From NCBI GenBank assembly GCA_964515755.1, contig CAZEVK010000005.1, positions 732 through 57,191 on the forward strand: DNA of 56,460 bases, written 5' to 3'. Position numbers and translations under genes: made by a program. The notes beneath the pieces are model-generated. The model was not told the DNA's origin, searched no databases, and saw only the letters and a list, made by a program, of their open reading frames with translations. Below, in pieces: positions 18,409-20,439 of the stretch. The stretch is from an uncultured Rickettsia sp. Its GTDB lineage: Bacteria; Pseudomonadota; Alphaproteobacteria; Rickettsiales; JABSSG01. Numbering within the stretch: the first letter of the stretch is position 1; each line of letters begins with the position of its first letter.

Positions 18409-20439
18409 ATGAAGAAATTTTTTCGTACTATAATACTGTGTTTAATCTCAGTAGTTTCAGTAAGTTTGAATGCTTATTGTTGTGATAGTTTTTTTTCATA
18501 TTCTTTTTCAATGCCTGGATGTAGTGGATGGGATAACTTTACGTGGTGTAATTATACATCTGCTGCTTTTAAAAATGATCCGTTAAATCCAACTGCAACT
18601 TTTAATGCTCATTGTTGTGGTTGGCATGCTGGAGGAGAAGGAAGTGGAAGCGTTCAGCTAGGAGTAAATCAAATGGCGGCGCCTTTAAGCATACATACTT
18701 CGTGGGCGCAGACCGGTTGTGGTTCTAATTATGATGCTATGTTGGTGCTTGTAAATCAGGCGACTGCGAGTCAGGTATCGGATTATACTAATAATCCAAT
18801 TACTGTTAATGTTAATAATTATGGTAAGGTTAATTTACAAGATACTCCACTAAAAAGAGCTTGTGCAAATAATATTGTAGGAAATGAAGGGTATGAATTT
18901 TATCAACAGGTTTGTAGCTCTACAAATTTCCCAACTAGCTCTACTCCTTGTACAGTTAACGATAATAGGTTGGTATGTTCTTTGCCGATAGCTTGTGCAA
19001 TTTTTCAATATACTAATGGAAATAGTATTTGGAATGATTGTTATTTTGTTCTGTTTCCGCCTTCTCCTCCACCATTTTGTTGCTCGATATCGATGCCAGC
19101 TTCACCTCCGGATACTGCTAATATTTGCCAAGAAAATACTTTTCCTTCGTCAAATAATATATGTGTGCCGCCATCTTCTGATGGAGGTAGAGGTGTTGCT
19201 CCTGTCGTTAATAACTTTTTTACTCCTTCTATTAGAGTAGCTTTTGATGCTCCATCTTCTGCATTTTTATCTGTTACTCCATGGTGTTCGAGTGGTTCTA
19301 ATCCTCCAGGATGTGTTACTGGTTCTGGTACCGCTAATTTCACACCGCAAGCTGGTACTACATACACAATTCAACAATGTACTACTACTGGTCAGCAAAA
19401 TTGTATTACTGTACCTCAGCAAACATCGCCTAATAAAAATTTCCCGACAAATATGGAGGTTATTTATTACTTGCCAAATAATCCTCCTACTTCACCTTTA
19501 GTAAGTAGATATTATTATCAAACAGTTGGGGGGTCAGCCGGGTCTTTATATGGTATTAATCTTGGTAATTATTGTGATTTAAGCCATAGCTTAGTCTCAG
19601 AGAATCCCGCGTCGTGCACAATAGCCGATTCAAATGATAGCCTAAGATCATTTCAAACTTACTTACAATGTGATCCAAATTCTAGCCCTTCGGATCCTAT
19701 GTATTTATATACATGTTCCAATGTTTGCGTTCGTGACGTTACTTTTGGAGGAGATGCTGGCTCATGTTTTCCAGTTCCAGCAATGCCTTTGCCAAAATCT
19801 GTGGTTCCTTGCGGAACTAATACTCCAACAGATTTCTGTATGAAATTAGCTTTCCAAGATGGTTATAGTGGCCAAATTCAAGGCACTATTCCAAGTACTT
19901 CACCTAGCCCTGGGTCAAATTTAATTTATTATATTGGCGCAATATCTGGCTCAAAGATTGGTTTGCAAGCTATGGTTACAGATGATAATTATAATCAACC
20001 AGATGGGAATGGAAATATATGTCTTAATAGCAATGGTGCTCCGGTATCAACGCCTTGCCCAGCATATAAGAACGGTTATCAGCCTGGTGGACTATATTAT
20101 GTAAATGGACAGTATATGGGTGGAGGTACTCAATTTTGTTATCTTCCTCAGTCAACTCCTGTAGCATGCCCGCCTGGTTGCGTGTCTGATTGTAACTGTG
20201 TTGAATCCAAACTAGTTTCTGGATCTGGTCAATCATCATTTCCAAGCCTAGTTATTAGCGATCGTATAATTCCTCCTCCTTCAACTGCTTCTCCTCTGGA
20301 TAATAATAGTCTTAGTACTGTTTCTCCTTCAACGGGTAACGGGGTAAGAGGGATGAATTCGTTGGAGGCCGGGCTTTGTGTAACTATACCTCTTCCACCC
20401 CCTGCGCCACCACCAGCAAAGCTCAAGCCAGCTTCTTAA
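18409..20439 (+). CDS. Hypothetical exported Cys/Pro/Ser/Thr-rich protein
   Basis: Signal-peptide-like N-terminus (MKKFFRTIILCLISVVSVSLNA), about 38 Cys counted by hand in 676 aa, PPPAPPPA near the C-terminus, no recognised domain. Confidence 0.85.
   Translation: MKKFFRTIILCLISVVSVSLNAYCCDSFFSYSFSMPGCSGWDNFTWCNYTSAAFKNDPLNPTATFNAHCCGWHAGGEGSGSVQLGVNQMAAPLSIHTSWAQTGCGSNYDAMLVLVNQATASQVSDYTNNPITVNVNNYGKVNLQDTPLKRACANNIVGNEGYEFYQQVCSSTNFPTSSTPCTVNDNRLVCSLPIACAIFQYTNGNSIWNDCYFVLFPPSPPPFCCSISMPASPPDTANICQENTFPSSNNICVPPSSDGGRGVAPVVNNFFTPSIRVAFDAPSSAFLSVTPWCSSGSNPPGCVTGSGTANFTPQAGTTYTIQQCTTTGQQNCITVPQQTSPNKNFPTNMEVIYYLPNNPPTSPLVSRYYYQTVGGSAGSLYGINLGNYCDLSHSLVSENPASCTIADSNDSLRSFQTYLQCDPNSSPSDPMYLYTCSNVCVRDVTFGGDAGSCFPVPAMPLPKSVVPCGTNTPTDFCMKLAFQDGYSGQIQGTIPSTSPSPGSNLIYYIGAISGSKIGLQAMVTDDNYNQPDGNGNICLNSNGAPVSTPCPAYKNGYQPGGLYYVNGQYMGGGTQFCYLPQSTPVACPPGCVSDCNCVESKLVSGSGQSSFPSLVISDRIIPPPSTASPLDNNSLSTVSPSTGNGVRGMNSLEAGLCVTIPLPPPAPPPAKLKPAS

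Follow-up and report, generated by a model that had tools for sequence, protein, structure and literature searches.

The window analysed here is a 56,460-nucleotide stretch of the genome of an uncultured Rickettsia sp. (assembly GCA_964515755.1, 1.58 Mb; contig CAZEVK010000005.1, positions 732 to 57,191, forward strand), and the gene at 18409..20439 (forward strand, stop codon included) encodes the protein under study, designated P0001. The gene runs from an ATG at 18409 to a stop codon ending at 20439 and gives a product of 676 residues, which was characterised from the open reading frame (ORF) list, its translation and composition, the ratio of nonsynonymous to synonymous substitution (dN/dS) and its homologues. 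Its conserved neighbour is a gene of the type IV secretion system (T4SS), a VirB6/TrbL paralogue of 1010 residues (14778..17810, forward strand; Pfam TrbL, 3e-22). Judged from the sequence comparisons below, P0001 is the local, shortened representative of a cysteine-rich family that evolves fast, is exported by Sec and occurs throughout the Rickettsiales, and P0001 may serve as an adhesin-like component of the rvh T4SS. The family is as yet unnamed and is only now becoming recognisable; P0001 itself is real and unusual.

A Sec-type signal peptide opens the protein (residues 1-22; 18409..18474, forward strand) and consists of MKKFFR, a 14-residue hydrophobic core and SLNA. It was recognised in a Kyte-Doolittle scan, where it was the sole hydrophobic segment of P0001, and corresponds to a helix at residues 2-25 in the AlphaFold2 (AF2) model; all homologues in the alignments start in the same way. 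On this sequence evidence P0001 is exported through its signal peptide. A script count gave 38 cysteines (5.6%), including CC pairs at residues 24, 69 and 224 and a CxxxCxxxCxC cluster (CPPGCVSDCNC, residues 587-597; 20167..20199, forward strand) located by regular expression, whose C587 is invariant in the family-level alignment A2. Two proline motifs were found, PPSPPP at residue 217 and PLPPPAPPPA at residues 661-670, the latter within a proline-rich C-terminal tail (residues 659-676; 20383..20436, forward strand) that directly follows C657 of the GLCV motif, the last universally conserved cysteine. The C-terminus reads ...KLKPAS and carries no aromatic beta-signal. On recount, the features listed in the original prediction (signal peptide, 38 cysteines, CC pairs, cysteine cluster, proline motifs and the lack of an anchor or beta-signal) proved exact. 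As the genome encodes DsbB plus DsbA-like proteins, periplasmic oxidative folding of P0001 is plausible, and the protein is probably disulfide-bonded. The earlier description of P0001 as a disulfide-bonded surface or secreted protein is thus upheld for export, and probably for disulfide bonding, while placement at the surface is part of the interpretation weighed below. A lipoprotein is unlikely, since the residues preceding the first mature cysteine vary among the aligned homologues and show no consistent lipobox.

The sequence features of P0001 lie well outside what chance would give, and its composition is extreme. It is rich in serine (12.1%), proline (10.4%), asparagine (8.7%), glycine (8.3%) and threonine (7.5%), and charged residues are scarce (lysine, K, 1.9%; glutamate, E, 1.2%). 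Among the 1152 ORFs of at least 150 residues called genome-wide, it ranked first in cysteine content (median 0.99%) and last in K+E (3.1% vs a median of 14.1%), in agreement with the claim that its poverty in K and E sets it apart from the rest of the proteome. Such a composition is not general to the exported proteins of this organism, because the roughly 120 proteins with crude signal-peptide-like starts have a median cysteine content of 0.79% and a median K+E of 12.1%. A filter for 250-residue windows with C ≥ 3%, K+E ≤ 6.5% and P ≥ 5% retrieved from the whole genome only P0001, the N-terminal ectodomains of all five TrbL/VirB6 paralogues and one marginal ORF of 195 residues, so that the match to the nearby VirB6 N-terminal regions described in the original prediction was sharper than claimed.

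Besides the neighbour of P0001, three of these VirB6/TrbL paralogues lie in the window at 26557-33838, where they follow rvhB4-I (the whole block at 24131..33838, forward strand; assigned by Pfam and composition), and the fifth lies elsewhere in the genome at contig C6:15168-17909. Their ectodomains are rich in cysteine, proline, serine and asparagine and poor in K and E, with 11-26 cysteines each, and no other protein class of the genome is alike. Three of the five begin with lipobox-like signals (LVSAC, LTAAC and LSGC). Homology between P0001 and the local VirB6 ectodomains was rejected (BLASTP E > 0.4; hhalign Prob 2.7% and 0.2%), composition alone being common to them; P0001 has no Pfam match to TrbL (PF04610) and no transmembrane segment past the signal peptide.

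Compared with its orthologue in a sister species, P0001 gave a dN/dS of 0.27 at a dS of 0.67. The corresponding ratios were 0.17 for the adjacent VirB6 and 0.035-0.10 for sdhA, sdhB, the MFS gene and the response regulator, and the P0001 gene was the fastest-evolving of the six neighbouring genes compared. P0001 is under purifying selection. A pseudogene or decaying remnant was ruled out by this ratio together with the stable length of 675-682 residues among relatives from at least three further sources.

The original prediction had called P0001 an orphan, which it is not. A word-indexed search of a 5.8-billion-protein set returned seven homologues (92-33% identity) and an exhaustive search of representatives added three; a word-indexed search with alignment A2 gave no new homologues. 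As a single-sequence query against the 41 nearest genomes, P0001 matched only the four genomes of its own genus. The profile of alignment A2 (11 sequences) matched 19 of 400 genomes of the order, and that of alignment A3 (18 sequences) found the family in 86 of the 400, spanning 31 genera (E ≤ 1e-5). When the members from its own bacterial family were aligned by hhalign with those from other families (L033, L034, L035, L036 and L038), the probability was 99.5% (E 7.6e-23, 358 columns), and it was 99.55% with the five sequences of the P0001 genus alone; hmmsearch supported profile-level homology over the core with E-values of 3e-19 to 3.5e-20. All named members are annotated 'hypothetical protein', and they include WP_341793217 from the Rickettsia endosymbiont of Ceutorhynchus, MFV9898786 from a Rickettsiales endosymbiont of Dermacentor, WP_125216544 from the endosymbiont of Stachyamoeba lipophora and WP_168455772 from Wolbachia wCfeJ.

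About 22 of the cysteines of P0001 are conserved within its own bacterial family and 12 across the order. Invariant in the order-wide alignment are C152, C211, P220-P221, C477 and C657, and at least 90% of the order-wide sequences also keep C70, C224, C240, C252, C440, C453, C468 and C577. The family signature C-x8-PPPFC (residues 211-224; 19039..19080, forward strand; CYFVLFPPSPPPFC) occurs once in the six-frame translation of the genome, and the broader pattern C-x8-PPP[FY]C likewise occurs once in its 3.17 million six-frame residues, in P0001. With identical spacing it recurs in members from Rickettsiaceae, Wolbachia and genus g170, and in EtpE of Ehrlichia (position 204). A second signature, FFTPSIRVAF (residues 270-279; 19216..19245, forward strand), is an invariant block in alignment A1. 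Its general form, [FY]F-x-P-x-[IV]-[RK]-[VI] (residues 270-277 in P0001), trails PPPFC in most members, L030, L032 and L034 being those that lack it.

Sequence searches of Pfam, NCBIfam and the PDB with P0001 and the alignments returned no relative of P0001. Two AF2 models reached a mean pLDDT of 58 and 63 and were mostly beta; the best-predicted part is a beta-rich core domain at residues ~380-590 (19546..20178, forward strand), where alone pLDDT rises to 75-91 and which contains the conserved blocks GSLYG-N-G-YCDL, PGGLYY and GGTQ-CY. The suggested check by AlphaFold and Foldseek came back empty, as neither model found a usable match in the PDB (best E 0.29 and 0.8).

The proposed association of P0001 with the T4SS is supported by a conserved neighbourhood that takes two independent forms, one beside a VirB6 paralogue in three genera of its own family and the other directly after rvhB4-II in other Rickettsiales families. 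Within the genus the gene order is sdhA, sdhB, (KdoO-like), Na/Ala symporter, VirB6 paralogue, [response regulator], the cysteine-rich gene and MFS. The VirB6 orthologue adjoins the family gene in tandem in G001, G002, L012 and L015-17, and on contigs L012 and L015-17 just 47 bp lie between the pair, where the regulator gene is missing. It adjoins the family gene divergently in L010 and L032, which represent two sister genera of the same family (G010 and G007, respectively). The VirB6 of L010 shares 34% identity with the 1010-residue paralogue of the window over 688 residues, ectodomain included (E 5e-107), and that of L032 has the same window paralogue as its best match in this genome.

Between the VirB6 and P0001 genes of the window lies a lineage-specific insert, a single-domain CheY-like response regulator (17895..18296, forward strand; Pfam Response_reg, 3.5e-22). 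This ORF is found only in the closest relatives, with none seen in G002, L012 or L015, and the receiver may be a lineage-specific regulator of the VirB6/cysteine-rich gene pair. No terminator-like site was seen between the VirB6, response regulator and P0001 genes, the promoter/terminator scan being weak evidence. In one species of the genus, a pair encoding a HipA-like kinase and a helix-turn-helix (HipB-like) protein lies directly downstream of the family gene (L012:12393-14772, L015:12447-14292); this pair does not occur in the window. Two lake metagenome-assembled genomes in the set (L008, CAMCSP010000005.1; L009, CAMDPW010000015.1) are publicly titled 'Rickettsia typhi', a label that their sdh operon, dxs, size of 1.3-1.6 Mb and placement in a separate family show to be a placeholder or an error.

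The family gene is the first one downstream of a VirB4 paralogue (Pfam CagE_TrbE_VirB, 6e-28 to 1e-43) in six genomes from four other families (G020, G037, G193, G239, G400 and G331). Two independent searches gave coordinates for a further ten Rickettsiaceae genomes, and these place it ~2.1-2.4 kb after the CagE domain of VirB4 on the same strand. The VirB4 copy concerned is the divergent rvhB4-II (virB4-2), which is isolated from other rvh loci and lacks ATPase motifs (PMC4676284; PMC12803143), and the layout after rvhB4-II holds in Rickettsiaceae, in two amoeba/tick endosymbiont lineages and in Anaplasmataceae. The Wolbachia virB4-2 neighbours wBm0748, 0749, 0751 and 0752 have been listed as candidate effectors for their T4SS linkage (PMC6160203). 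Of the order's 400 genomes, 397 contain the VirB4 domain, most of them twice. Duplication of rvhB4 is therefore almost universal and extends to the many uncultured families, and the near-ubiquity of VirB4 leaves phyletic co-occurrence with the T4SS uninformative.

In the genome studied here, rvhB4-II lies on contig C27 (5932-8343, minus strand) and P0001 on contig C5. The rvhB4-II gene runs directly into the genes for the alpha and beta subunits of ribonucleotide reductase (RNR; C27:2856-8343) with no family gene there, whereas the order in G020 is rvhB4-II, family gene, RNR alpha, RNR beta. The rvhB4-II/RNR junction on C27 thus looks like an empty ancestral site, and because G020 carries the family gene at that very place, the most parsimonious view is that departure of the gene from the rvhB4-II site dates to the ancestor of this bacterial family, the gene now standing beside a VirB6 paralogue. 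The position of P0001 away from rvhB4-II would then mark a relocation within the family and not exclusion from it, and the VirB6-adjacent form gives a second, independent genomic link of the family to the T4SS, alongside the rvhB4-II adjacency.

The variable part of the family lies at the C-terminal end. P0001 has 18 residues beyond the GLCV motif and lacks the long variable module of its relatives, for in distant relatives the slot of its tail holds a variable cysteine-rich or Sushi-like module of 100-500 residues. One or two Sushi/CCP-like C...W...C modules end the members from Rickettsiaceae and the Dermacentor endosymbiont (L033:5882-8608, L036:5767-9309, L038:4996-8382 and L034:596-3976), with Pfam Sushi reaching only E 0.043. 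A beta-rich domain follows these modules in the Rickettsiaceae members L034, L036 and L038, and L033 stops right after the second module. Their presence suggests eukaryote-like binding modules on the variable end. According to the alignments, the proline-rich tail keeps its character in the nearest clade only and a variable module takes its place elsewhere, and the tail is therefore not family-defining.

Periplasmically assembled T4SS cargo exists in some other systems, and P0001 could accordingly be pictured as a released substrate that reaches the periplasm by the Sec route, leaves through the T4SS and engages host SH3, EVH1 or profilin proteins with its proline-rich tail. A signal peptide combined with T4SS linkage, the tail itself and the listing of Wolbachia virB4-2 neighbours as candidate effectors (PMC6160203) speak for such a substrate. 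We consider it very improbable, since the tail is not conserved past the nearest clade and a protein with 38 cysteines that depends on disulfides is ill-suited to the reducing cytosol of a host.

The layout after virB4-2 is one link of the family with EtpE. In Ehrlichia, the next gene downstream of virB4-2, with which it shares the strand, encodes EtpE (1934 residues); two paralogues come after it, and the same layout of virB4-2 and then a family gene was found in Anaplasma and in genera g39 and g170. The two tandem Ehrlichia paralogues measure 1329 and 745 residues (L053:1222-14983). With several copies after virB4-2 in Ehrlichia, Anaplasma and g39, the family has therefore expanded in the Anaplasmataceae. 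The NCBIfam EtpE model (NF049896) matches the Wolbachia family member, and in a scan of 98 Anaplasmataceae genomes positions 185-300 of this model and the P0001-family profile hit the same stretch of Wolbachia proteins. When the family without Wolbachia was aligned with Anaplasmataceae N-terminal regions, hhalign gave a probability of 51% (E 1.6e-4) over 48 columns covering exactly both motifs. P0001 had no match to the EtpE model (cut-off 1500 bits) even at E ≤ 10. On the shared motif with its spacing, the gene position in relatives and these profile comparisons, homology of the family to the conserved N-terminal region of EtpE is probable and not proven, hhalign having reached only 51% and hmmsearch having come back empty in Ehrlichia and Anaplasma.

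EtpE is a surface-exposed invasin whose C-terminal 300 residues bind the host receptor, and its N-terminal ~700 residues are conserved among Ehrlichia species and poorly accessible to antibody on live bacteria (PMC3789761). This pattern of accessibility is consistent with a conserved core that is buried and a variable end that is exposed. It also bears on the notion that P0001 is a periplasmic factor in the structure or assembly of the oversized VirB6 ectodomains, for instance their scaffold or a partner tied to them by disulfides, that is never exposed and has no contact with the host. A core resembling this poorly accessible EtpE region (PMC3789761), the composition in common with the VirB6 ectodomains and the lack of an anchor, beta-signal or lipobox in P0001 would all suit such a factor. 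The family's long and highly variable C-terminal modules, Sushi-like or EtpE-C, are by contrast typical of exposed parts, and P0001 has the highest dN/dS of its neighbourhood; we regard a purely periplasmic role as unlikely.

EtpE can equally be taken as a precedent for a stand-alone surface adhesin or invasin whose action on host or prey cells does not involve the T4SS, with the gene neighbourhood being historical, a trace of an old shared operon. Beads coated with EtpE alone trigger entry (PMC3789761), EtpE has been listed among outer-membrane proteins, apart from the T4SS (PMC7789307), several family members have no T4SS neighbour, and the fast evolution of P0001 is as in surface proteins. 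We view this as possible but doubtful for P0001. After leaving rvhB4-II the gene landed beside another T4SS gene and was kept there in two orientations and three genera, its extreme composition is common only to the VirB6 ectodomains and not to the ~120 signal-peptide-like proteins, and P0001 has no sizeable C-terminal binding module of its own.

The account that we favour, with modest confidence, makes P0001 an adhesin-like part of the rvh T4SS, located in the envelope or at the surface. The protein would be exported by Sec and disulfide-bonded, its gene would correspond in position to that of VirB5, and its variable C-terminal module would be cut back to a proline-rich tail. In the canonical virB order B4-B5-B6, VirB5 is a minor pilin and tip adhesin. 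VirB5 has been reported absent from all Rickettsiales (PMC7789307; PMC11077975), and since the family holds the VirB5 gene position in an order reported to lack VirB5, it may fill the VirB5 role. P0001 would first be exported by Sec and then oxidised in a DsbA/DsbB-dependent manner. Its conserved core of ~650 residues would dock on a periplasmic or surface-exposed part of the T4SS, most likely the similarly composed VirB6 ectodomains, and the segment past the last conserved cysteine (GLCV) would form the outward-facing, lineage-variable part. That part would be receptor-binding in Ehrlichia EtpE, Sushi-like modules in Rickettsiaceae and the 18-residue proline-rich tail here, with the whole protein acting as an accessory of adhesin type, encoded where canonical virB operons have VirB5. 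Given this gene position and the invasin EtpE as a distant relative, the tip adhesin idea put forward for P0001 is plausible.

Several observations weigh against this T4SS component. In two genomes of the same family (G008 and G004) and on two short metagenome contigs the family gene has no T4SS neighbour, and linkage to the T4SS is therefore frequent and not obligatory. As RvhB4-II is cytoplasmic, adjacency to its gene is silent on direct contact between the two products. At sequence level the tie to EtpE is weak (hhalign Prob 51% and 11%), and plain hmmsearch with the family profile found no match in Ehrlichia or Anaplasma. The AF2 model is of middling quality (mean pLDDT 63) and has no fold relative that would hint at a function, and P0001 has no membrane anchor, lipobox or beta-signal to explain its retention at the surface.

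The rvh T4SS has a central place in the biology of Rickettsia, Ehrlichia, Anaplasma and Wolbachia, and its architecture is puzzling, with duplicated components, giant VirB6 proteins and no known VirB5. A conserved exported family that stays with T4SS genes when genomes rearrange offers a concrete candidate for the outer part that this machine must have, and EtpE would gain a much wider evolutionary frame from it. What is new is the short, relocated, VirB6-adjacent form, which names one VirB6 paralogue as a candidate partner. P0001 moreover defines the minimal conserved core of ~650 residues and could be a handy construct for structural and interaction studies. More speculatively, the whole family could supply the outer component that the rvh T4SS seems to lack and that touches the host, as a functional counterpart of VirB5 or CagL with its core bound to RvhB6 ectodomains; we put this forward as a tentative idea, and rather an improbable one. 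If it were true, the relocation from rvhB4-II to one rvhB6 paralogue would point to the physical partner, and the invasin activity of EtpE would be a T4SS-tip function and not that of a free outer-membrane protein.

Set beside known systems, the P0001 family shares with VirB5 Sec export and a proposed role at the cell-to-host contact point, and the resemblance is limited to gene position and suggested role. VirB5 is helical and measures ~220 residues, whereas P0001 has 676 and is beta-rich and disulfide-rich; identity with VirB5 (PF07996) was rejected, as there was no sequence match and the P0001 model is mostly beta. The absence of VirB5 from this genome is weakly shown, because the control genomes also lacked it. 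TraN (PF06986), the mating-pair stabilisation adhesin of F-type T4SSs that occurs on Rickettsiales mobile elements, is likewise Sec-exported and cysteine-rich, a T4SS-associated surface protein of 430-780 residues with 22-42 cysteines (3.6-7.7%). TraN was not found in this genome, and identity of P0001 with it was rejected, since hhalign aligned the signal peptide only (Prob 4%) and Pfam gave no match even at E ≤ 1.

Much closer are the partner proteins encoded after rvhB4-II. Like P0001, they have a Sec signal, the C-x8-PPP[FY]C and FF-P-x-I-R-V signatures, ~12 conserved cysteines and an R-x-x-N/T-P-x-E-x-G-L-C-V motif near the end of the core, and they too occur as a single copy per genome linked to a T4SS gene. 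P0001 differs from them in being much shorter (676 vs 816-1187 residues), in lacking their helical insert and C-terminal Sushi-like or beta modules, in a K and E content far below theirs and in its place beside a VirB6 paralogue instead of after rvhB4-II.

P0001 differs from EtpE (Ehrlichia chaffeensis ECH1038; NF049896) in lacking a glycine-rich domain (no Gly_rich_2 match), central variable repeats and the receptor-binding region EtpE-C, as it ends 19 residues after C657, and in its cysteine content, 5.6% against 2.3% in EtpE. EtpE nevertheless resembles the family in being exported and encoded directly after virB4-2 and in combining a conserved core with a variable C-terminal part. Its conserved N-terminal ~700 residues are similar in size to P0001, and both proteins carry C-x8-PPPFC followed by an FF-block, which in EtpE reads FF-x-P-x-V-K-I.

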